Notes: generated by a model not told the origin, from the letters alone. Counted from the stretch's first letter, positions 1,209 to 21,861 are shown. The stretch: 21,861 nucleotides of DNA from a virus (IMGVR_UViG_2579778633_000005:1-21861), one strand, 5' to 3'. Numbers and translations are program-made.

Positions 1209-1244
1209 GTGGATAAAATAATTTTACCCACCGGATTTTTACCC

Positions 1245-2399
1245 ATGCTCACCGTTAAGCAGATTGAAGCAGCAAAGCCGAAAGAAAAACCATACCGCCT
1301 ACTCGATGGTAATGGCCTGTACCTTTATGTCCCTGTGTCAGGGAAAAAGGTATGGCAGCTTCGCTACAAGATTGACGGTAAGGAGAAAATCCTGACCGTC
1401 GGAAAATATCCGCTTATGACTTTGCAGGAGGCAAGGGATAAAGCATGGACTGCGAGGAAAGACATCTCGGTTGGCATCGATCCGGTAAAAGCAAAAAAGG
1501 CTTCGTCTAACAACAATTCCTTTAGCGCCATTTACAAGGAATGGTACGAGCACAAGAAGCAAGTCTGGTCAGTAGGCTATGCAACTGAACTTGCCAAAAT
1601 GTTTGATGACGACATTTTACCCATCATCGGCGGTCTTGAGATTCAGGATATTGAGCCGATGCAACTGCTGGAAGTAATCCGCAGATTTGAAGATCGCGGT
1701 GCAATGGAGCGAGCCAACAAAGCCCGCAGAAGATGCGGCGAGGTTTTCCGTTACGCTATTGTCACCGGCAGGGCTAAATATAACCCGGCACCTGACCTTG
1801 CTGGCGCCATGAAGGGGTACCGCAAGAAGAACTTCCCGTTTCTTCCTGCAGACCAGATCCCGGCATTCAATAAAGCACTGGCAACATTTTCAGGAAGTAT
1901 CGTATCGCTCATTGCCACCAAGGTTTTACGCTACACTGCCCTAAGAACGAAAGAGCTTCGTTCCATGCTATGGAAGAACGTCGATTTTGAAAACAGAATT
2001 ATCACCATCGACGCCAATGTGATGAAGGGACGCAAAATTCATGTGGTCCCGATGTCAGACCAGGTGTTTGAACTTCTCACTACGCTAAGCTCAATCACCA
2101 AACCAGTATCAGAGTTTGTTTTTGCCGGGCGCAACGATAAGAAGAAGTCAATCTGCGAGAACGCGGTACTGCTTGTGATCAAACAAATCGGCTATGAGGG
2201 TCTGGAAAGCGGTCACGGATTCAGGCATGAATTCAGCACGATTATGAACGAGCACGAATGGCCTGCCGACGCCATTGAAGTGCAACTGGCACATGCCAAC
2301 GGCGGTTCTGTGCGCGGGATTTACAACCATGCGCAGTATCTCGATAAACGCAGGGAAATGATGCAATGGTGGGCGGACTGGCTTGATGAAAAGGTGTGA
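1245..2399 (+). CDS. intS: Tyrosine recombinase, phage integrase of the IntS (KplE1/Sf6/HK620) type
   Basis: The ORF track begins at a GTG at 1209; I prefer the ATG at 1245 (MLTVKQIEAAKPKEKPYRLLDGNGLYLYV), which matches the N-terminus of K-12 IntS as I recall it. C-terminal catalytic region carries HGFRHEF and the RGIYNHAQY tyrosine motif. Directly follows the tRNA. Confidence 0.85.
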   Translation: MLTVKQIEAAKPKEKPYRLLDGNGLYLYVPVSGKKVWQLRYKIDGKEKILTVGKYPLMTLQEARDKAWTARKDISVGIDPVKAKKASSNNNSFSAIYKEWYEHKKQVWSVGYATELAKMFDDDILPIIGGLEIQDIEPMQLLEVIRRFEDRGAMERANKARRRCGEVFRYAIVTGRAKYNPAPDLAGAMKGYRKKNFPFLPADQIPAFNKALATFSGSIVSLIATKVLRYTALRTKELRSMLWKNVDFENRIITIDANVMKGRKIHVVPMSDQVFELLTTLSSITKPVSEFVFAGRNDKKKSICENAVLLVIKQIGYEGLESGHGFRHEFSTIMNEHEWPADAIEVQLAHANGGSVRGIYNHAQYLDKRREMMQWWADWLDEKV

Positions 2400-4876: not shown

Positions 4877-5128
4877 ATGGGAAGAGATGACCCGCAATTT
4901 AATCTGCGGCTACCTTACGAATTAAAGGAAAAACTAAAACAGCGAGCCAAATCCAATGGCCGCTCTCTTAATTCAGAATTAGTTCAGATAGTGACTGATG
5001 CTGTATCAAAGCCATCCAAAATTTCAGGCTATCGAGACGATGCGGAACGCATCGCTGATGAGCAGTCTGAACTTGTTAAGAAGATGGTGTTTGATACGCT
5101 GAAGGATTTGTACAAAAAACCCACCTGA
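4877..5128 (+). CDS. mnt: Mnt repressor (ribbon-helix-helix, Arc/MetJ family, 83 aa)
   Basis: Sequence MGRDDPQFNLRLPYELKEKLKQRAKSNGRSLNSELVQIVTDAVSKPSKISGYRDDAERIADEQSELVKKMVFDTLKDLYKKPT closely matches P22 Mnt as I recall it. RBS GAGG 9 nt upstream. Confidence 0.85.
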   Translation: MGRDDPQFNLRLPYELKEKLKQRAKSNGRSLNSELVQIVTDAVSKPSKISGYRDDAERIADEQSELVKKMVFDTLKDLYKKPT

Positions 5129-12846: not shown

Positions 12847-12905
12847 TTATTCACCTATGCGTTTGGGATATCGCCATCAATCAGAGGGAGATCGCCTGGA
12901 TAATA

Positions 12906-13337
12906 TCAGTCAGATGTAAACACGTCATATTTATTACCCTGTCCTACAGGAAAATCTCCACGTCGTCGCATTGAAGGAACAACCAGAGTGTCGGTCATCA
13001 AGGCATCATATGAGCGTTGGGCGTTACTGAGAACTTGCGGAGTTGGTTCAAGGCTGTAATCAGATAGCATTCTCAGCAATAACTGATAGCCTACTGCGTG
13101 TTTGTATTTTCTTGGAAGACCTGACTCATCATCTGGTAATGGCTGATCATCTCCAGTTGCGAAAGCGTAACCAATGTCGCCGGGGTTAATCATCCACTCG
13201 GACATCATATCTTCCAGATCATTTACACCATCTTCAATTGATTGCGGCTCAACATCAGTCAGCGATGCATTAGAAGCAATAGCAAACTTACGAAGCGCAA
13301 AAAGGACGATCTCACCCTTTGTCAGTACTGTTGCCAT
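12906..13337 (-). CDS. Tail accessory / head completion protein, P22 gp4 family (143 aa)
   Basis: N-terminus [48 protein letters not shown] aligns with P22 gp4 as I recall it ([32 protein letters not shown]...). Confidence 0.75.
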   Translation of the reverse strand: [143 protein letters not shown]

Positions 13338-13539: not shown

Positions 13540-14106
13540 TTACGGATTACCGAAGAACTGACCGCCCATGTGAGGGTTAAAGCACACATATGCAGGCAGT
13601 AAGTCGAAGCGCATTTTTTGCACGTTGGCATCGCCATCTGCGTATTTATGTACGCGGATGGAGAAACCTTCATATGTTGCAACAGCAGAATCAATACTGT
13701 GCAGTTTCGGCAGTGGGATAGAGCCAAGTCCACAGAAGAACTTGTTATAGAACAGGTTTGGCTTCATTGTCTGGCTAGCAGTGCCTACTACAGATACGTC
13801 ATCGCCTGCATCTACCTGACGACTTACAGAGTTGTACTGCGGGTTTGTAGTGTCATAAATCGGAACACCAGAAAGCGTAACCGTCACATCGCCACCGCTG
13901 TCTGAATCAGCATCAGCAGTAACCGTTGCAGTGAAGCTAATTGGTGTGGCTCCGTTATACAACGCCTGTTTGGTCTGCTGTTGCAGCCAGTAGGTATTGG
14001 TGAATTTGACCTGATCACCAGCTTTCAGAAAACCTGTAACGCTGGCTTTCGCTCCGGTCAATGTTACAGTGAACTGGTACGGGGATTCATTCGGGCCAGC
14101 GCCCAT
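13540..14106 (-). pseudogene. Probable 3' remnant of the major coat protein gene (188-codon ORF), N-terminal part deleted
   Basis: Occupies the coat position just before the gp4 block but is less than half the ~425 aa of P22-like coat proteins. Its 5' end overlaps the 3' end of the truncated terS reading frame. Identity as coat is inferred from position, not from recognised sequence. Confidence 0.45.
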
Positions 14107-14405
14107 TTGCGGGTATCAACGCGAAGTCTTGCCTTTGCCACCTCGGCGGCATCTGGAATCGCAGTGTCAGCAATTTCGAATATCTCTTCGAAAATAGAAT
14201 CAGCTCGTGCCTCAGTTGCCTTCGCGTACTTGTCGCGAAAATCCTCATGCTTTGCCAACCAGCGGAAAACAGTGGACTTATCCGGCATACCAGGACGCTT
14301 ACATACTTTCAGCAAACTTTCGCCAGAAGAAAGCAACGAGCAGATATCGTCAGCCACCTCCGGCATATAATCAGAGGGGCGACCAGCTTTTGGTTCAGTC
14401 GCCAT
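14064..14405 (-). pseudogene. 5' remnant of small terminase subunit gene (113-codon ORF; frame lost after ...ARMNPR)
   Basis: MATEPKAGRPSDYMPEVADDICSLLSSGESLLKVCKRPGMPDKSTVFRWLAKHEDFRDKY... matches my recollection of the Sf6-type small terminase (~140 aa). The ORF ends early and is followed directly by a coat-like 3' segment; no terL, portal or scaffold genes are present. Confidence 0.5.
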
Positions 14406-15356: not shown

Positions 15357-15794
15357 TCATCGAAGGCATTGCGTCCTGATGTACTCCTGCAGGTAGTTAA
15401 CCTGCGCGGTTATCTTGTCGATTCCACTTCGGAGACGGTAATAATTGAGTTCAGCATCTGCTGTAAGTCTTGGGCTTTCTCCATCGCCCATGCTGCTGGC
15501 TCCGGCCGTTGACTTTGCACAGGTGGCGGCGACTTGCAGGCGCTTACGACCAGCAGAAACATCAGCACGGAGGCTTTCGATAGTCTCGTTAGCATCAGCA
15601 AGCTCCTTTGTGTATCTGGCGTCGAGTTCCGCTACATCACGTTGACGCTTCTGCATGTCAGCGATTGTGGATGCGGCCTTATCGCGCTGCTCTTTGTAGA
15701 TCATGGCGTTATCACGGTAATGATTAACAGCCCATGACAGGCAGACGATGATGCAGATAACCAGAGCGGAGATAATCGCGGTGACTCTGCTCAT
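15357..15794 (-). CDS. Rz: Spanin, inner-membrane subunit Rz (145 aa)
   Basis: [30 protein letters not shown]... matches the lambda Rz N-terminus; start overlaps the endolysin stop by 4 nt as in lambda. Confidence 0.85.
15410..15601 (-). CDS. Rz1: Spanin, outer-membrane lipoprotein subunit Rz1 (63 aa), embedded in the +1 frame of Rz
   Basis: Out-of-frame ORF wholly inside Rz; signal peptide with lipobox LVVSAC followed by a Pro-rich stretch ([16 protein letters not shown]), the classic Rz1 architecture. Confidence 0.7.
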
Positions 15795-16267
15795 ACCTCA
15801 ATCTCTCTGACCGTTCCGCCTGCTTCTTTGAATTTTGCAATCAGGCTGTCAGCCTTATGCTCGAACTGACCATAACCAGCCCCCGGAAGTGAAGCCCAGA
15901 TATTGCTGCAACGGTCGATAGCCTGACGGATATCACCGCGATCAATCATCGGCAAAGCGCCACGCTCTTTAATCTGTTGCAATGCCACAGCGTCCTGGCT
16001 TTTCGGAGAGAAGTCTTTCAGGCCAAGCTGCTTGCGGTAGGCATCCCACCAACGGGAAAGAAGCTGGTAACGTCCGGCTGCTGTTGATTTGAGTTTTGGG
16101 TTTAGCGTGACAAGTTTGCGAGGGTGATCGGAGTAATCAGTGAATAGCTCTCCGCCAACAATGACGTCATAACCATGATTTCTTGTTTTCTGACGTCCGT
16201 TATCAGTTCCCTCTGACCACGCCAGCATATCGAGGAACGCCTTACGTTGATTATTGATTTCCACCAT
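15791..16267 (-). CDS. R: Endolysin, lambda R-type lytic transglycosylase (158 aa)
   Basis: [62 protein letters not shown]... is essentially identical to lambda R as I recall it. Confidence 0.9.
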
Positions 16268-16574
16268 CTTCTACTCCGGCTTTTTTAGCAGCGAAGCGTT
16301 TGATAAGCGAACCAATCGAGTCAGTACCGATGTAGCCGATGAACACGCTCGTTATATAAGCGAGATTGCTACTTAGTCCGGCGAAGTCGAGAAGGTCACG
16401 AATGAACCAGGCGATAATGGCGCACATCGTTGCGTCGATTACTGTTTTTGTAAACGCACCGCCATTATATCTGCCGCGAAGGTACGCCATTGCAAACGCA
16501 AGGATTGCCCCGATGCCTTGTTCCTTTGCCGCGAGAATGGCGGCTAACAGGTCATGTTTTTCTGGCATCTTCAT
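16251..16574 (-). CDS. S: Class I holin, lambda S-type (107 aa) with dual-start motif Met1-Lys2-Met3
   Basis: [69 protein letters not shown]... is essentially identical to lambda S; 17-nt overlap with R as in lambda. Confidence 0.9.
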
Positions 16575-16801
16575 GTCTTACCCCCAATAAGGGGATTTGC
16601 TCTATTTAATTAGGAATAAGGTCGATTACTGATAGAACAAATCCAGGCTACATTTTGCGGTAACGCTGTTTGCTCGTCACAGTTTTCGCGAGGAGACCAT
16701 TAGGGATACTGTTTGCGCAGTATCCATATCAATCGCATTTAACGACCATTAATGGATGCACTCATAAATGCATCCTGTAATGGGAGCTCTTAATTAATTA
16801 G

Positions 16802-17323
16802 TTAATAAATAACCCATGTCTTATAGTTAAGAATTCCTGCAATTGTTGCTTTTGATACGCCGTACATTCTCGCCATTTCACGCTGTGACATTGATTTGCA
16901 CGCACGTATTTCTTTCACTTGCTCAGTAGTGAGTTTTGCACAATAGTGACGCTCACCACTGATTGGGTTTAGCAATCCTGACTTGCTTGCATGGACCATA
17001 TTCTGGCAGCCAGTAACCCACTCAAGATTATCTACTCTGTTGTCAGACTTGATTCCATTTATGTGGTTTACCTGCGGAAGCGAGTTTGGATTATCAATGA
17101 ATGCAGCCGCCACTAACCTGTGAATGTAATGTTTTTTAAGTGCTCCTTTGTCGCGGAGATTTACATACAAGTAACCATCACTATGATTAACAGGCTTAAG
17201 CCATCTGCCCTTCTGTAACCTTCCACGAGCATCAACTCTCGAATGAGAATAAACGCGGCCATCAGTAGTTACGGAGTATTTACCTTCATATCCTGCGATA
17301 TCTTTCGCTGTTTCGCTTAGCAT
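16802..17323 (-). CDS. HNH homing endonuclease (NUMOD4 + HNH_3 + C-terminal HTH; 173 aa)
   Basis: NUMOD4-like GYEGKYSVTTDGRVYS; HNH_3-like HRLVAAAFIDNPNSLPQVNHINGIKSDNRVDNLEWVT; C-terminal HTH-like ...SQREMARMYGVSKATIAGILNYKTW. RBS AAGGAG upstream. Inserted between lambda-like pR'/tR' sequence and lambda-like sequence upstream of S. Confidence 0.75.
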   Translation of the reverse strand: MLSETAKDIAGYEGKYSVTTDGRVYSHSRVDARGRLQKGRWLKPVNHSDGYLYVNLRDKGALKKHYIHRLVAAAFIDNPNSLPQVNHINGIKSDNRVDNLEWVTGCQNMVHASKSGLLNPISGERHYCAKLTTEQVKEIRACKSMSQREMARMYGVSKATIAGILNYKTWVIY

Positions 17324-17511
17324 AAGCTACTCCTTGTATTTATTTTTAATCGACAACAACTTCTTGCCACCCACTTTCACGAAGCCAGCCATTGCGCTGG
17401 TTTTCTTTTATGCAAAGCACACCGCACCGTAGCCACAGCGGATAAGGTGATTATTTTTGTCTGTCTGGTATTTGGTTTGATGTGCTTTCAGAAAGGTCGT
17501 GATTAAAACGC

Positions 17512-17568: not shown

Positions 17569-17604
17569 TGAGTCAAATTTACCCAACTTTATTCAAAAAG
17601 TCAA
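17569..17604 (-). promoter_or_regulatory. Late promoter pR' with overlapping qut region (lambda-like)
   Basis: Minus-strand TTGACT-TTTTGAATAAAGTTGGG-TAAATT-TGACTCAACGATGG closely matches lambda pR'/qut (TTGACTTATTGAATAAAATTGGGTAAATTTGACTCAACGATGG) as I recall it; lies downstream of Q. Confidence 0.65.
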
Positions 17605-17646
17605 TATTATGCCGTTAATATGTTGCCATCCGTGGCAATCATGCTG

Positions 17647-18270
17647 CTAACGTGTGACCGCGTTCAAAATGTTGTCTGCGATTGACTCTTCCTTGTGGCA
17701 TTGCACCACCAGAGCGTCATACAGCGGCTTAACAGTGCGTGACCAGGTGGGTTGGGTAAGGTTTGGGATTAGCATCGTCACAGCGCGATATGCTGCGCTT
17801 GCTGGCATCCTTGAATAGCCGACACCTTTGCATCTTCCGCATTCTTTCTCAACAACTCTCCCCCACTGCTCTGTTTTTGCTATATCAACCGCACGGCCTG
17901 TACCGTGGCAATCTCTGCATCTTGCGCCCGGCGTCGCGGCACTACGGCAATAATCCGCATAAGCGAATGTTGCGAGCACTTGCAGTACCTTTGCCTTAGT
18001 ATTTCCTTCAAGCTTTGCCACACCACGGTATTTCCCCGATACCTTGTGTGCAAATTGCATCAGATAGTTGATAGCCTTTTGTTTGTCGTTCTGGCTGAGT
18101 TCATGCTTACCGCAGAATGCAGCCATACCGAATCCGGCTTGTGATTGCGCCATCCCCATAGCAGCCATCACATCAGTACCGGAAAGAGAGTCAGAAGCCG
18201 TGGCCCGTGGTGAGTCGCTCATCATCGGGCTTTTTGGCGAATGAAATTTAGCTACGCTTTCGAGTCTCAT
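17647..18270 (-). CDS. Q: Late gene antiterminator Q, lambda type (207 aa)
   Basis: MRLESVAKFHSPKSPMMSDSPRATASDSLSGTDVMAAMGMAQSQAGFGMAAFCGKHELSQNDKQKAINYLMQF... is essentially identical to lambda Q as I recall it, including the Cys-rich zinc-binding segment. Confidence 0.9.
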   Translation of the reverse strand: MRLESVAKFHSPKSPMMSDSPRATASDSLSGTDVMAAMGMAQSQAGFGMAAFCGKHELSQNDKQKAINYLMQFAHKVSGKYRGVAKLEGNTKAKVLQVLATFAYADYCRSAATPGARCRDCHGTGRAVDIAKTEQWGRVVEKECGRCKGVGYSRMPASAAYRAVTMLIPNLTQPTWSRTVKPLYDALVVQCHKEESIADNILNAVTR

Positions 18271-18455
18271 GGCCTTCCCCTTTTGCCCTGTTTGACCATC
18301 AGGACGCCGTTAACTATTATGTGACGCTCACCTTTGCTGTCTCGGTTGTACTTAAGCACTGTTCCTCTTGCGCAGGAAAGCATCCTAGCCACTTCGGTCT
18401 GATTGCCTCGTGTCTGGATAAGAAGCTCTGGTATCGTTTGAATTGTGGCGTTCAT
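18267..18455 (-). CDS. ninH: NinH-like protein (62 aa)
   Basis: ...TIPELLIQTRGNQTEVARMLSCARGTVLKYNRDSKGERHIIVNGVLMV resembles lambda NinH; sits immediately upstream of Q as in lambda. Confidence 0.6.
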   Translation of the reverse strand: MNATIQTIPELLIQTRGNQTEVARMLSCARGTVLKYNRDSKGERHIIVNGVLMVKQGKRGRP

Positions 18456-18814
18456 ACGTTCTCCAGTTCGGTGATTTTTATTCCAAGCCGTCCGCCTGGT
18501 ACTTTCACACCACGAATTACGCGAATGTCATCGAATTGCTCGTCGTCTTCCGCAAATCCGGCGTGGATAAGTGAGTCGAGTAAACCTTTCAGGATGTTAT
18601 CGAGGTCGCGGCGGCGGGAGTCTGGAACGTCTGCGATGACTTTGATGCGGAGTCGTGATTTGGTGAAAATGTCTAACTTGAGTTGGCGGATGATTTGCTG
18701 AACGTCTTTTCGGTATTTCTGGCCTTTATCGCTTATGTAATATTGGCTTCCCCGTCTTCGCCAGTAGGTATTCACCGACGGCGGGTATGGAAGCACAAAC
18801 TGATATTCGTTCAT
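18452..18814 (-). CDS. rusA: Holliday junction resolvase RusA family (120 aa)
   Basis: Same length as E. coli RusA; conserved LPYPPSVN and PDSRRRDLDNILKGLLDSL (catalytic Asp region) and ...GGRLGIKITELENV. Occupies the nin-region slot filled by rusA in phage 82 and DLP12. Confidence 0.75.
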   Translation of the reverse strand: MNEYQFVLPYPPSVNTYWRRRGSQYYISDKGQKYRKDVQQIIRQLKLDIFTKSRLRIKVIADVPDSRRRDLDNILKGLLDSLIHAGFAEDDEQFDDIRVIRGVKVPGGRLGIKITELENV

Positions 18815-19101
18815 GACTTAATCTTCCCCTCCTTCAGCAGTATCGCCTGCGTCCTGATCACGCCTTCGAGGTGGTAAAGTCTGGCGTCTTTGTTGTCGAG
18901 ATTATGGGTACGTCGGTCGATTTCATCGTGACACGCGCTACAAGCCCATGCACCGATCAGGTCGTCAGGTTTCATTCCCGTTCCGCAAATTCCAACCATC
19001 CGGTAATGTGCCAGAACTGTAGTTTCAGGATTGCCATTGCATACGCCGTAAATACGTACCTGGCATTCTCTGCCGCGTGCTTCTTTGCGTAGGTTAGCCA
19101 T
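18811..19101 (-). CDS. YbcO-like DUF1364 protein (96 aa), Cys/His-rich putative nuclease
   Basis: MANLRKEARGRECQVRIYGVCNGNPETTVLAHYR...ACSACHDEIDRRTH resembles the DLP12 YbcO family as I recall it; nin-region synteny ybcO-rusA. Confidence 0.55.
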   Translation of the reverse strand: MANLRKEARGRECQVRIYGVCNGNPETTVLAHYRMVGICGTGMKPDDLIGAWACSACHDEIDRRTHNLDNKDARLYHLEGVIRTQAILLKEGKIKS

Positions 19102-19271
19102 TAAGCAGCCTCCCCTGTTACTTTCAGCATTCCGTTATCGAGCAGCTTTCTGGTCAGCCACTGTTGACCACGTCCGGTGATTTTTGTGGTGAACGATATC
19201 TGTATTCCGTGATTTGTGTTGGATAAGCTGTAGTGATCGAATGCCGGAAGACACCAAAATGTTACTGGCAT
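19101..19271 (-). CDS. Possible NinE-like small ORF (56 aa), possibly truncated at the nin/early-left junction
   Basis: Hand-translated MPVTFWCLPAFDHYSLSNTNHGIQISFTTKITGRGQQWLTRKLLDNGMLKVTGEAA; its stop overlaps the ybcO-like start (TAATG). Its first ~19 codons overlap the opposite-strand DUF551 ORF, so the start is uncertain. Confidence 0.25.
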   Translation of the reverse strand: MPVTFWCLPAFDHYSLSNTNHGIQISFTTKITGRGQQWLTRKLLDNGMLKVTGEAA

Positions 19272-19417
19272 TTAGTCAAGGTGAAATCGTGGCCGCATAT
19301 TGGAACTGGGTTGTAAATCCAATTGATTACAAAAAATATAGAGCTTTCACGTATTTATCAGGAAATATCTTGGATGACGTAACTCACTGGATGCCGCTAC
19401 CAGAGCCTCCACTTTGA
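19214..19417 (+). CDS. DUF551 domain protein (67 aa; TTG start at 19214 or ATG at 19241)
   Basis: Contains both DUF551 signature segments, WISCSDRMPEDTK and WMPLPEPP. Opposite strand to the nin genes, co-oriented with torI. Confidence 0.55.
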   Translation: MCWISCSDRMPEDTKMLLAFSQGEIVAAYWNWVVNPIDYKKYRAFTYLSGNILDDVTHWMPLPEPPL

Positions 19418-19513
19418 AAGCGAAGCTTATACATATCTTTTACATCAGCAATCTATTGTTAATCTCCAATCAATGTTACGTTGTCATCTCACTCATGCTT
19501 TGGAGGTAGTGAT

Positions 19514-19693
19514 ATGTCTTGTCCAAAATGCGGTTCTGGAAATATTGCAAAAGAAAAAACAATGCGTGGATGGTCTGGTGATTATGTGTGCTGCGATTGC
19601 GGATACAACGACTCTAAAGACGCATTTGGAGAGCGTGGTAAAAACGAGTTTGTCAAAATTAATAAAGATCGCGAAGGCAACGGAAAAAGCTAA
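19514..19693 (+). CDS. Small zinc-ribbon protein (59 aa)
   Basis: MSCPKCGSGN...CCDCGYN has two CxxC pairs; RBS GGAGG 7 nt upstream of ATG 19514. The track ORF at 19481 begins with TTG and lacks an RBS. Confidence 0.5.
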   Translation: MSCPKCGSGNIAKEKTMRGWSGDYVCCDCGYNDSKDAFGERGKNEFVKINKDREGNGKS

Positions 19694-19758
19694 TTTATTT
19701 ATTCATATATGAAAACAATGTAACCAATATTCGAATTGAAGAACTGAAAGAACACCAA

Positions 19759-19782
19759 GCCGCCTGATGGCGGTTTTTTATT
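19759..19782 (+). terminator. Intrinsic terminator after the zinc-ribbon gene
   Basis: Stem CCGCC / GGCGG with loop TGAT, followed by TTTTTTATT. Confidence 0.5.
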
Positions 19783-19793
19783 GGAGACAAGAA

Positions 19794-20138
19794 ATGTCAG
19801 ATTTGGCTATGAAGGTTTTGAAATGGCAATCGACTGGCGATGTTGGCATCAGTAGCGCAACTCTTGCCTCAATCGCATGTGGACTGAAAAAGAATATCTA
19901 TGGTCATAGCTTCGGTGCTCCACATGACGCAGCAGACTTTCGGCGATGCGTTGCACTTGTTGAGCAGATTCCAGAAATCAGAGATTCATTCGACAAGGTT
20001 GCAAAGCGCGTTCCGGCATTCAAAGGAATCCTCAACGAATGGGATTCACTCGTTGCTCTGTTGAAGTCTGAAATGAAGACGTACGGGAACAAAGCACCAG
20101 AGACTTACAGAAGAATCAGCGAGCTACGCAAGGATTAA
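19794..20138 (+). CDS. Hypothetical protein (114 aa)
   Basis: Start chosen at ATG 19794, with GGAG 7 nt upstream; the track's ATG at 19767 lies inside the terminator hairpin. No recognised motif. Confidence 0.45.
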   Translation: MSDLAMKVLKWQSTGDVGISSATLASIACGLKKNIYGHSFGAPHDAADFRRCVALVEQIPEIRDSFDKVAKRVPAFKGILNEWDSLVALLKSEMKTYGNKAPETYRRISELRKD

Positions 20139-20226
20139 CCCGCCTCACACTCGATGAGGCATTTTCATTTATCAAGATATCCAGACCTACCATCGGCGCA
20201 TCAATGCGGTTTTTTTATTACCTGAT

Positions 20227-20242
20227 TTGCAGGTTCGATTCC
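20227..20242 (+). repeat. 16-bp copy of argW nucleotides 46-61 (TTGCAGGTTCGATTCC), immediately upstream of the torI RBS
   Basis: Exact 16-mer identity to tRNA positions 1054-1069 of this window. Confidence 0.8.
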
Positions 20243-20261
20243 CTATTCGGAGATAGCACTC

Positions 20262-20462
20262 ATGCAACACGAACTACAGCCTGATTCCCTGGTTGATTTG
20301 AAATTCATCATGGCTGATACTGGCTTCGGTAAAACCTTCATATATGACCGGATTAAGTCCGGAGACCTGCCTAAAGCCAAAGTTATCCACGGGCGAGCAA
20401 GATGGTTATATCGTGACCATTGTGAATTCAAAAATAAGCTCTTAAGCCGCGCCAATGGGTAA
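20262..20462 (+). CDS. torI: Excisionase / recombination directionality factor TorI (66 aa, winged-helix)
   Basis: MQHELQPDSLVDLKFIMADTGFGKTFIYDRIKSGDLPKAKVIHGRARWLYRDHCEFKNKLLSRANG matches K-12 TorI as I recall it; located next to the attR core repeat, RBS GGAG 10 nt upstream. Confidence 0.85.
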   Translation: MQHELQPDSLVDLKFIMADTGFGKTFIYDRIKSGDLPKAKVIHGRARWLYRDHCEFKNKLLSRANG

Positions 20463-20535
20463 AATAGCGGGTAAAATATTTCTCACATCTAAAAAACACC
20501 ATTCTAATCAATCCCCTGCCGCGTCAAGTAGATGT

Positions 20536-20550
20536 CTGCAGGGGACACCA
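20536..20550 (+). repeat. attR core: 15-bp direct repeat of the argW 3' end (CTGCAGGGGACACCA, tRNA nt 61-75)
   Basis: Exact match to 1069-1083; sequence beyond it does not match the attL phage arm, consistent with host DNA. Confidence 0.8.
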
Positions 20551-20991
20551 GATACCCTTCAAACGAAATCTACCTTCACCCCGTAAAAGATGGGTTTGGC
20601 AGCACACTTGCCTTATATCTACTCATTTTTACTGCAACAGGTTGAAATCTCAGCACTGTCAGAAAGCGCTGATGACTAAACAGCCCTGGGCCGGGCGATG
20701 TAACCATCACACAGAATCCTGATAGCGAAATATGGCGTGACTCGATACTTCACTCCGCAATGCATTCCTTGATGAATTCGCAGGACCGTGATACACGGGA
20801 CAGGTCACTGAATGACGACAATGTCCTGGAAATCAGCGAACCGCGCATCTGAAGTACATTTGAGCGACTGTACCAGAACATGAATGAGGCGTTTGGATTA
20901 GGCGATTATTAGCAGGGCTAAGCATTTTACTATTATTATTTTCCGGTTGAGGGATATAGAGCTATCGACAACAACCGGAAAAAGTTTACGT

Positions 20992-21861
20992 CTATATTGC
21001 TGAAGGTACAGGCGTTTCCATAACTATTTGCTCGCGTTTTTTACTCAAGAAGAAAATGCCAAATAGCAACATCAGGCAGACAATACCCGAAATTGCGAAG
21101 AAAACTGTCTGGTAGCCTGCGTGGTCAAAGAGTATCCCAGTCGGCGTTGAAAGCAGCACAATCCCAAGCGAACTGGCAATTTGAAAACCAATCAGAAAGA
21201 TCGTCGACGACAGGCGCTTATCAAAATTTGCCACGCTGTATTTGAAGACGGATATGACACAAAGTGGAACCTCAATAGCATGTAACAGCTTCACTAATGA
21301 AATAATCCAGGGGTTAACGAACAGCGCGCAGGAAAGGATACGCAACGCCATAATCACAACACCGATAAGTAATGCATTTTTTGGCCCTACCCGATTCACA
21401 AAGAAAGGAATAATCGCCATGCATAGCGCTTCGAGTACCACCTGGAATGAGTTGAGATAACCATACAGGCGCGTTCCTACATCGTGTGATTCGAATAAAC
21501 CTGCATAAAAGACAGGAAAAAGTTGTTGATCAAAAATGTTATAGAAAGACCACGTCCCCACAATAAATATGACGAAAACCCAGAAGTTTCGATCCTTGAA
21601 AACTGCGATAAAATCCTCTTTTTTTACCCCTCCCGCATCCGCCGCTACGCACTGGTGATCCTTATCTTTAAAACACATGTTGATCATCATAAATACAGCG
21701 CCAAATAGCGAGACCAACCAGAAGTTGATATGGGGACTGATACTAAAAAATATGCCGGCAAAGAACGCGCCAATAGCATAGCCAAAAGATCCCCAGGCGC
21801 GCGCTGTTCCATATTCGAAATGAAAATTTCGCGCCATTTTTTCGGTGAAGCTGTCAAGCAA
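20992..21861 (-). CDS. cscB: LacY-family oligosaccharide:H+ symporter, sucrose permease CscB-like; 3' portion only, 5' end beyond the window
   Basis: Hydrophobic multi-TM protein; ...LVKLLHAIEVPLCVISVFKYSVANFDKRLSSTIFLIGFQIA... aligns with the LacY C-terminal region and matches my recollection of CscB, whose csc locus maps near argW/dsd in sucrose-positive E. coli. ORF runs to the window edge; the first codon is not a real start. Confidence 0.6.
   Translation of the reverse strand: MLDSFTEKMARNFHFEYGTARAWGSFGYAIGAFFAGIFFSISPHINFWLVSLFGAVFMMINMCFKDKDHQCVAADAGGVKKEDFIAVFKDRNFWVFVIFIVGTWSFYNIFDQQLFPVFYAGLFESHDVGTRLYGYLNSFQVVLEALCMAIIPFFVNRVGPKNALLIGVVIMALRILSCALFVNPWIISLVKLLHAIEVPLCVISVFKYSVANFDKRLSSTIFLIGFQIASSLGIVLLSTPTGILFDHAGYQTVFFAISGIVCLMLLFGIFFLSKKREQIVMETPVPSAI

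Follow-up and report, generated by a model that had tools for sequence, protein, structure and literature searches.

How do the nin and Q genes of a lambdoid prophage come to lie directly against its early-left genes, with no immunity or replication region between them? The question is raised by the viral sequence IMGVR_UViG_2579778633_000005 (positions 1-21861, hereafter called the window, meaning the whole stretch of 21,861 nucleotides that was analyzed), which contains a 19.5-kb P22-like prophage remnant of the HK620/Sf6 type seated at the tRNA-Arg gene argW. The original prediction, made from the DNA sequence, had minus-strand nin genes running straight into plus-strand genes, and proposed a second large deletion with its junction near 19200-19270. 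The layout was confirmed, with ybcO-rusA-ninH-Q on one side and DUF551-Eag-hypothetical-torI on the other, and the breakpoint was found within the proposed range, at 19218-19221. A single illegitimate-recombination event very probably joined the 3' end of the antirepressor gene roi to the start of the DUF551 domain across a shared GTTG and removed about 12-13 kb, and the element itself is, with equally high confidence, a defective HK620/Sf6-type (Lederbergvirus) prophage. No finding speaks against the deletion as such.

The breakpoint was mapped by megablast and blastn searches of positions 17600-21861 against 50,697 phage records and 5,426 complete Escherichia coli genomes. All matches on the Q-ninH-rusA-ybcO side end at 19221 or before, all matches on the DUF551-torI-cscB side begin at 19218 or after, and no record in either collection covers both sides of the junction. 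Left homology extending to 19221 and right homology starting at 19218 therefore leave a 4-nt GTTG microhomology at 19218-19221, common to the roi side and the DUF551 side. Intact DUF551 relatives read …GGATGGTTG|GATAAGC… at the breakpoint and intact roi reads …TTTGTGTTG|ACCGCTG…, while the window reads …TTTGTGTTGGATAAGC… across the junction. The flanks are collinear and co-oriented with HK620 (record L001, up to 13622 and from about 25301) and with the argW prophage of strain PM06121, and overlap by the GTTG, as in a microhomology-associated deletion. Alignment to HK620/Sf6-like relatives, the check named in the original prediction, placed the breakpoint; in HK620 roi and the DUF551 gene are not adjacent but are spaced 10.7 kb apart.

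The 121 nt that immediately precede the break belong to the 3' end of roi (19101-19221, minus strand) and comprise the last 39 codons and the stop of Roi, a KilAC-type antirepressor whose gene lies ahead of ybcO in HK620 and HK97. Residues 202-240 of HK620 Roi are found in the window at 100% identity (tblastn), and the remnant gives a weak match to the Pfam ANT (ANT/KilAC) domain (E=0.0016). The ORF at 19101-19271 on the minus strand, which had been taken for a NinE-like gene, consists of 17 antisense DUF551 codons followed by these 39 Roi codons. It has no match to Pfam NinE (PF05322), and tblastn searches of the window with the NinE proteins of HK620 and PM06121 were empty; because the breakpoint flanks are the roi 3' end and DUF551, this ORF is a Roi/antisense-DUF551 fusion. 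On the other side, a plus-strand ORF at 19214-19417, with homology from 19218, matches positions 1-67 of 68 of Pfam DUF551 (PF04448; E=1e-21, 78 bits against a cut-off of 22). The break falls precisely where the Pfam domain begins, and the variable N-terminal part, the ribosome-binding site and the ATG have been lost. The observation that this ORF has no ATG ahead of its WIS motif was therefore correct, and the gene is a pseudogene fragment because its start codon and N-terminal region are missing.

In HK620 the equivalent breakpoints lie at L001 13622 in roi and about 25301 in DUF551, so that 11.7 kb is missing from the window by comparison; in the argW prophage PM06121 the equivalent points are about 13.1 kb apart. 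According to the HK620 annotation, the deletion took roi codons 1-201, ninF, ninE (and ninX), ninB and ninA/tR2 on the nin side. From the replication and control region it took the DnaB-like helicase (P), the initiator (O) with ori, cII, tR1, nutR, cro and pR/OR, and from the immunity and left region cI, pL/OL, nutL, N, cIII, kil and the ea genes. The recombination genes erf/sak4, ssb and abc2 were also lost. All HK620 proteins from Roi to HkaE, together with the PM06121 cI, cro, cII, O, helicase, NinB/E/X and Erf proteins, were searched against all six frames of the window by tblastn, and only Roi 202-240 and the DUF551 C-terminal domain were matched. The earlier statement that no repressor, cro, N, O/P or ninB-type gene exists anywhere in the element thus holds for cI, cro, N, O/P and ninB and for any immC-type repressor, none of which was found in this search, and fails for repressors in general, since a Mnt-like repressor gene survives at 4877-5128.

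The roi side of the junction is very probably a non-random, recurrent deletion endpoint. At least five deletions, in unrelated phage lineages, end on the same roi nucleotide, GTGTTG|ACC (breakpoint p, 19221|19222 in the window), and the five junctions compared have five different partners. The intact site reads GTGTTGACC, and the sequence shared to the left of all five breaks is …CCGTGATTTGTGTTG|. In the window the partner is DUF551, with a GTTG microhomology, and in strain PI6 it is the 3' end of abc2, with none. A contig designated L128 has roi codon 7 fused in frame to codon 202 (TTG), L130 (protein P0002) has ninB codon 19, giving NinB 1-19 plus Roi 202-240 (TG), and L131 (protein P0004) has cro codon 20, giving Cro 1-20 plus Roi 202-240 (TTG). 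Microhomology thus abuts the break nucleotide in four of the five junctions and is absent from the fifth, and no partner sequence continues with the next A of roi (0/5). All five deletions extend in the direction of roi's 5' end and span about 0.6, 1.3, 4.5, 10 and 12 kb, and in every case ybcO is kept intact and the flank on its side is preserved to the nucleotide.

These junctions came from several searches. Strain PI6 was the best partial match among the complete genomes, and has its own argW deletion with a roi remnant ending at the identical nucleotide. Scanning for the 23 nt that precede the break, with a base other than A next, gave nothing in GTDB representative genomes, one point mutant in IMG/VR and, in JGI metagenomes, another point mutant plus the new junction L128. 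A protein search with the fusion ORF of the window returned P0001 (an L128-type fusion, in six contigs), P0002 and P0004. In about 120 IMG/VR contigs roi runs uninterrupted through the site, which rules out an ordinary mosaic or module boundary, the non-A variants being point substitutions only. Other truncated Roi ORFs from the protein search (P0005, P0006, P0009, P0010, P0014 and P0015) have scattered breaks. Judged from sequence, the five events are independent, because their partners differ and their left flanks are closer to different intact phages: the left 600 nt are 98-99% identical to various intact phage contigs as against 82-98% to the other junction elements (a comparison of four elements, L130 being left out because of a further deletion there). 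Coincidence on one nucleotide by chance was roughly estimated at <1e-6 despite the bias of the protein search, with L128 excluded as a DNA match, for which the search had targeted the site, and included as the protein match P0001. Recurrence of the roi breakpoint is robust. Leftward deletions from the site were not seen in IMG/VR, which is uninformative since rightward ones are absent there too.

The nearest alternative is that the breakpoint was inherited, a PI6-like roi'|abc2' remnant having formed first and a later deletion having run from the old junction to DUF551. The roi endpoint of PI6 is the very nucleotide found in the window, both elements lie at argW beside csc, and a GTTG-to-GTTG deletion in a PI6-type sequence would yield exactly the junction of the window. 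Against this, the left 600 nt of the window match PI6 at 97.8% identity but various intact phage contigs at 98.8-99.2%, and the Q gene of PI6 differs (519 nt versus 624 nt). The second deletion would also have to start precisely at the old junction, repeating the same coincidence, and in three junctions the partner (roi, ninB or cro) lies left of abc2, so that they cannot have had a PI6-type ancestor. We consider a two-step origin improbable.

An insertion sequence (IS) may instead once have lain in roi at this site, its excision or an adjacent deletion having removed the IS together with a variable length of flank, as with IS911 in the nin region of Sf6. There is precedent in that the nin deletions of evolved Sf6 all remove IS911 and have mostly been attributed to IS excision with loss of flank (PMC5630979), and the PI6 remnant has IS3-family copies elsewhere. 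However, no transposase ORF or IS end was found in the window with Pfam and PHROG, and the scans for …GTGTTG followed by a base other than A in IMG/VR, GTDB representatives and JGI metagenomes revealed no IS abutting the site. The IS911 of Sf6 is located in ninG, not roi, and repair after excision would be expected to erode both flanks, whereas the ybcO-side flank is kept in all five junctions. An IS origin therefore appears quite improbable.

Single-event deletion at a recurrent site also has to be set against a simple assembly error, in which two contigs of one prophage were wrongly joined. The junction is missing from the 5,426 complete E. coli genomes, the GTDB representatives and the protein collection, and only NCBI assembly GCA_000692815.1 had a match, at 100% identity. 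An assembler would nevertheless not be misled by an overlap as short as 4 nt, NCBI scaffold KK736529.1 (possibly the source of the window itself) has the identical 16.3-kb arrangement, and analogous junctions at the same nucleotide occur in the complete genome of PI6 and in independent assemblies. An artefact is very improbable. The element carries a further scar at 14078/14079, where a partial coat gene (13540-14079; Pfam positions 250-423 of 423) is joined to a piece of terS (14079-14405; Pfam Sf6_terminase), the C-terminal 179 coat codons being fused to the N-terminal 109 of terS. The scaffold, portal and terL genes have been lost, and 5.3 kb of HK620 (L001 2283-7556) is missing by blastn and tblastn. 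No complete E. coli genome has this head-gene junction; GCA_000692815.1 carries it at 100% identity, as do two Logan read-set assemblies. Both scars are real and limited to a few identical assemblies, since none occurs in the complete E. coli genomes yet the GCA_000692815.1 and Logan assemblies carry them at 100% identity.

The gp4 gene for a tail accessory/head-completion protein (12855-13337, minus strand) is free of indels relative to HK620 and has a premature stop, R144*, at 12906; together, the head deletion and this nonsense codon would make the element doubly dead. With genes for induction, replication and virion assembly lost, lambdoid regulation implies that it cannot replicate, respond to SOS induction, transcribe its early operons or package DNA, and it has been recently disabled. 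That selection maintains it as a functional reduced element, whether a satellite or a domesticated lysis/tail module, is scarcely credible: of the ORFs that remain, most (tailspike, ejection, needle, gp10, Q, S, R, Rz, intS and torI) are undamaged, with 96-98% identity to those of active phages, but recent deletion explains that identity equally well, both junctions cut genes (roi, DUF551, coat and terS), gp4 stops early, and the arrangement is limited to a few identical assemblies.

For the recurrent deletion endpoint in roi, three features need explanation, namely an endpoint fixed to the nucleotide, a constant retained side, and variable partners with a terminal microhomology of 0-4 nt. Because one endpoint is fixed, the same side is kept and the partners vary, a fixed DNA end ligated or extended elsewhere is suggested. 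Such an end would arise at the roi site by a site-specific nick or a replication stall, and would then join, or prime, at a distant microhomology. Candidate agents would be nicking by YbcO, the putative nuclease encoded next to the site, or by an HNH endonuclease of phage origin, an intermediate of the topoisomerase type covalently bound on the roi-sense strand (cut 5'-CGGT|C, with C at -4), or a replication block just past the site. We tentatively propose, as a possibility rather than an expectation, that GTGTTG|ACC, 120 bp upstream of ybcO, is a place where lambdoid phages make a defined DNA end, from which deletions of 0.6 to >12 kb would extend on one side only, towards the genes for replication and immunity. 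Michel and Ehrlich (1986) reportedly described deletions anchored at M13 and pC194 origin nick sites, with a shared endpoint, variable partners and little or no homology; the roi site, which is not known to hold an origin or a target of a nicking enzyme, resembles these in outcome only.

Several sequence features of the site were considered. HincII-type GTY^RAC cleavage and RusA cleavage at 5'-^CC would each be 1 nt off, the gyrase consensus would leave a different retained end, and EcoP1I/EcoP15I sites, Ter, integration host factor (IHF) sites, dif and the att core have no match at the site (all compared by eye). The window has no Chi site. Near-repeats are present in the retained roi 3' end, and in intact roi, at 19162-19169 and 19214-19221 (GTGATTTTTGTGGTGAAC and GTGATTTGTGTTG(ACC)), and the octamer TGTTGACC is found both 60 nt to the left of the hotspot (19162) and at the hotspot itself. 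This TGTTGACC repeat could be a protein-binding repeat. A simple rule of cleavage at the motif is not supported, as the nearby junction P0015 breaks 5 nt off the equivalent position.

What the deletion means for the genes that remain depends on what was removed with the repressor. The earlier description of Q, pR' and the lysis cassette as intact was borne out. Left of the break lie, all on the minus strand, ybcO (DUF1364 putative nuclease, 18811-19101; Pfam YbcO, E=4e-44), the Holliday-junction resolvase gene rusA (18452-18814; Pfam RusA) and ninH (18267-18455; Pfam Phage_NinH), each intact, and then the antiterminator gene Q (17647-18270), which encodes 207 residues, is full length like HK620 Q and matches Pfam Antiterm at E=1e-57. 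The late promoter pR' (17604-17576), found by consensus scan with its hexamers present, is collinear with the HK620 pR'/qut annotation, and just past it the same kind of scan placed a terminator hairpin of 13 bp with a downstream T-run (17542-17514). Holin S (16251-16574; Pfam holin), endolysin R (15791-16267; PHROG endolysin) and Rz (15357-15794; Pfam Rz) follow at full length. In HK620/Sf6-type phages Q is transcribed from pR with the assistance of N. Because the deletion took pR, pL, N and both nut sites along with cI, Q lost its promoter and not its brake; from lambdoid regulation, we infer that it was cut off from its promoter rather than freed from repression. The description of Q and the lysis genes as no longer under any phage repressor circuit is in this respect literally true and misleading. 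The ybcO-rusA-ninH-Q genes would be silent barring transcription from outside, for example from the cscKB operon, and pR' would still fire into its terminator, producing a short RNA and leaving S-R-Rz off without a repressor. A crude consensus scan found no sigma-70-like site on the minus strand of 19101-21861. The csc genes, also on the minus strand, point towards the remnant, and the only minus-strand terminator-like structure ahead of ybcO (19773-19760) has a poor T-tract, so outside transcription into Q may be the one visible risk.

Several points limit parts of the account. The gene content of the progenitor is not fixed, so the deleted length is given as a range, 11.7-13.1 kb. Part of the hotspot sample came from searches biased to the site or to short in-frame ORFs. 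No enzyme, binding site or DNA structure was found that would account for the hotspot, and folding of the site region gave no significant hairpin and nothing better than shuffled sequence. HNH endonuclease genes show no specific association with the breakpoint, being frequent in intact relatives too. The silence of Q and the lysis genes is read from gene architecture and from a promoter scan by crude consensus matching; cryptic promoters, or transcription reading through from cscB, may still be at work.

Taken by its outcome, the scar is ordinary prophage decay comparable to that of DLP12 or KplE1. The element is like HK620, Sf6, Kapi1 and intact argW prophages such as PM06121 in its integration site, its IntS/TorI/att module, its P22-like virion genes and its lambdoid roi-ybcO-rusA-ninH-Q-pR'-S-R-Rz module (96-98% nucleotide identity). 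Unlike them, it lacks the 11.7-13.1 kb from roi codon 201 to DUF551 and the 5.3 kb of head genes, and has the gp4 nonsense codon and an extra HNH gene in the late leader. The argW site is used by HK620, Sf6, Kapi1 and KplE1 (PMC3509656). KplE1/CPS-53 of E. coli K-12 is likewise a defective argW remnant that keeps attL, attR, intS and torI (PMC3509656; PMC2951348), with 16 ORFs whose function is mostly unassigned (PMC3509656). Unlike KplE1, the remnant in the window is far less eroded, with nearly all tail and ejection genes and a complete Q-lysis module. DLP12 of E. coli K-12 provides a parallel of another kind, an S-R-Rz/Rz1 operon controlled by a Q-type antiterminator in a prophage incapable of forming phage (PMC7918800). 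It differs in integration site and phage type, and is old and widespread, whereas the scar in the window is found in a few identical assemblies. In DLP12, too, ybcO-rusA lies upstream of Q, and rusA is silent and promoterless until an IS inserts upstream.

Deletions in the same region of lambdoid genomes are known from lambda nin5 and from evolved Sf6, where they arose between short repeats or after a local DNA break and recurred in independent lines (PMC5630979). Unlike the present deletion, these stay within non-essential nin genes and leave the phage viable, and those of Sf6 are anchored by IS911 in ninG; the deletion in the window leaves the nin region, runs through the replication and immunity genes and involves no IS. 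The scar shows how one E. coli lineage disarmed a P22-like prophage by two deletions. Its value is modest, for annotating strains and for judging whether leftover lysis genes could be turned on by read-through. If a defined DNA end is indeed made at the recurrent roi breakpoint, this would be a built-in, previously undescribed route by which such prophages lose their immunity and replication genes and become grounded. If many independent prophages break at one nucleotide beside a putative nuclease gene, decay is not purely random, and a specific molecular event may bias the order of gene loss.

The setting of the element agrees with its assignment. The left end of the window carries yfdC (1-933) and tRNA-Arg(CCT) argW (1009-1083), the sole match in an Rfam scan of the window. 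A 15-bp direct repeat, CTGCAGGGGACACCA, is the longest sequence found without mismatch at both ends of the element and forms the att cores, attL at 1069-1083 inside the 3' end of argW and attR at 20536-20550. An intact integrase gene, intS (1209-2399, plus strand; Pfam Phage_integrase and Arm-DNA-bind_3), adjoins argW, and the plus-strand genes of the other end are Eag (19514-19693), a hypothetical gene (19794-20138) and the excisionase gene torI (20262-20462), identified from the RefSeq annotation of the 100%-identical DNA of E. coli 1EC187 and from PHROG matches. An IntS-type integrase is thus paired with a TorI-type excisionase at opposite ends, and since intS, torI and both att sites are intact, excision may still be possible. 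P22-type genes recognized by Pfam and PHROG include the tailspike head-binding domain, gp16, gp20, gp7, gp14, the needle, gp10 and gp4. The tail and ejection genes and the nin-Q-lysis module are collinear with HK620 by blastn, with nucleotide identities of 96-98% to HK620 and to intact argW prophages. Of repressor-type genes only the Mnt-like one on the plus strand remains (Pfam Arc and Repressor_Mnt domains); it is of the immI type and lies near the tailspike gene, and arc and ant, its usual targets, are both absent.

The HNH endonuclease gene (16802-17323, minus strand; 173 aa) has NUMOD4, HNH_3 and a C-terminal helix-turn-helix domain by Pfam and PHROG. It occupies the late leader, downstream of the pR' terminator and ahead of the holin gene, where HK620 has about 815 nt of unrelated sequence. 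Across 16651-17357 neither HK620 nor PM06121 showed homology, and none of 26 related loci carrying both Q and S has this gene between them.

Other remnants offer further views of the same region. The L131 contig (positions 1-4236; Logan ERR13732012) retains intact cI and pR, and pR directly drives cro'-'roi-ybcO-rusA-ninH-Q, placing the late regulator directly under the prophage repressor with no replication genes between. The argW remnants of PI6 (L002 6957) and GDSC2227PM (L006, about 3003) have abc2 breaks 2-4 nt apart with different left partners; abc2 may be a second recurrent endpoint, or the proximity may be chance arising from how the match was picked.

On the DUF551 side, the start of the domain (GGTTGGATAAGC, containing WIS; 19213-19222) is a point at which relatives switch between unrelated N-terminal modules, one example being a dATP/dGTP pyrophosphohydrolase domain, and L003 (15001) and L004 (4001) diverge 5 nt upstream of the break in the window. 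E. coli 1EC187 and five other genomes are 99.9-100% identical to window positions 19218-21861. RefSeq labels the identical DUF551 DNA of 1EC187 as missing its N-terminus, yet the gene extends upstream there, so 1EC187 does not share the DUF551 breakpoint and carries a different deletion. In 1EC187 (L003 14129-15200), the only one of these genomes inspected, a larger deletion has joined an immI ant fragment to the DUF551 N-terminal region, and the remnant keeps just intS, the tailspike gene and the early-left end. One ancestral prophage thus seems to have followed at least two independent paths of decay. Beyond attR, cscB (20992-21861, minus strand; a 289-aa ORF in the window) is probably a pseudogene; the 100%-identical 1EC187 gene has an internal stop according to RefSeq, and in the NCBI assembly cscB is annotated as two products of 98 aa and 289 aa.

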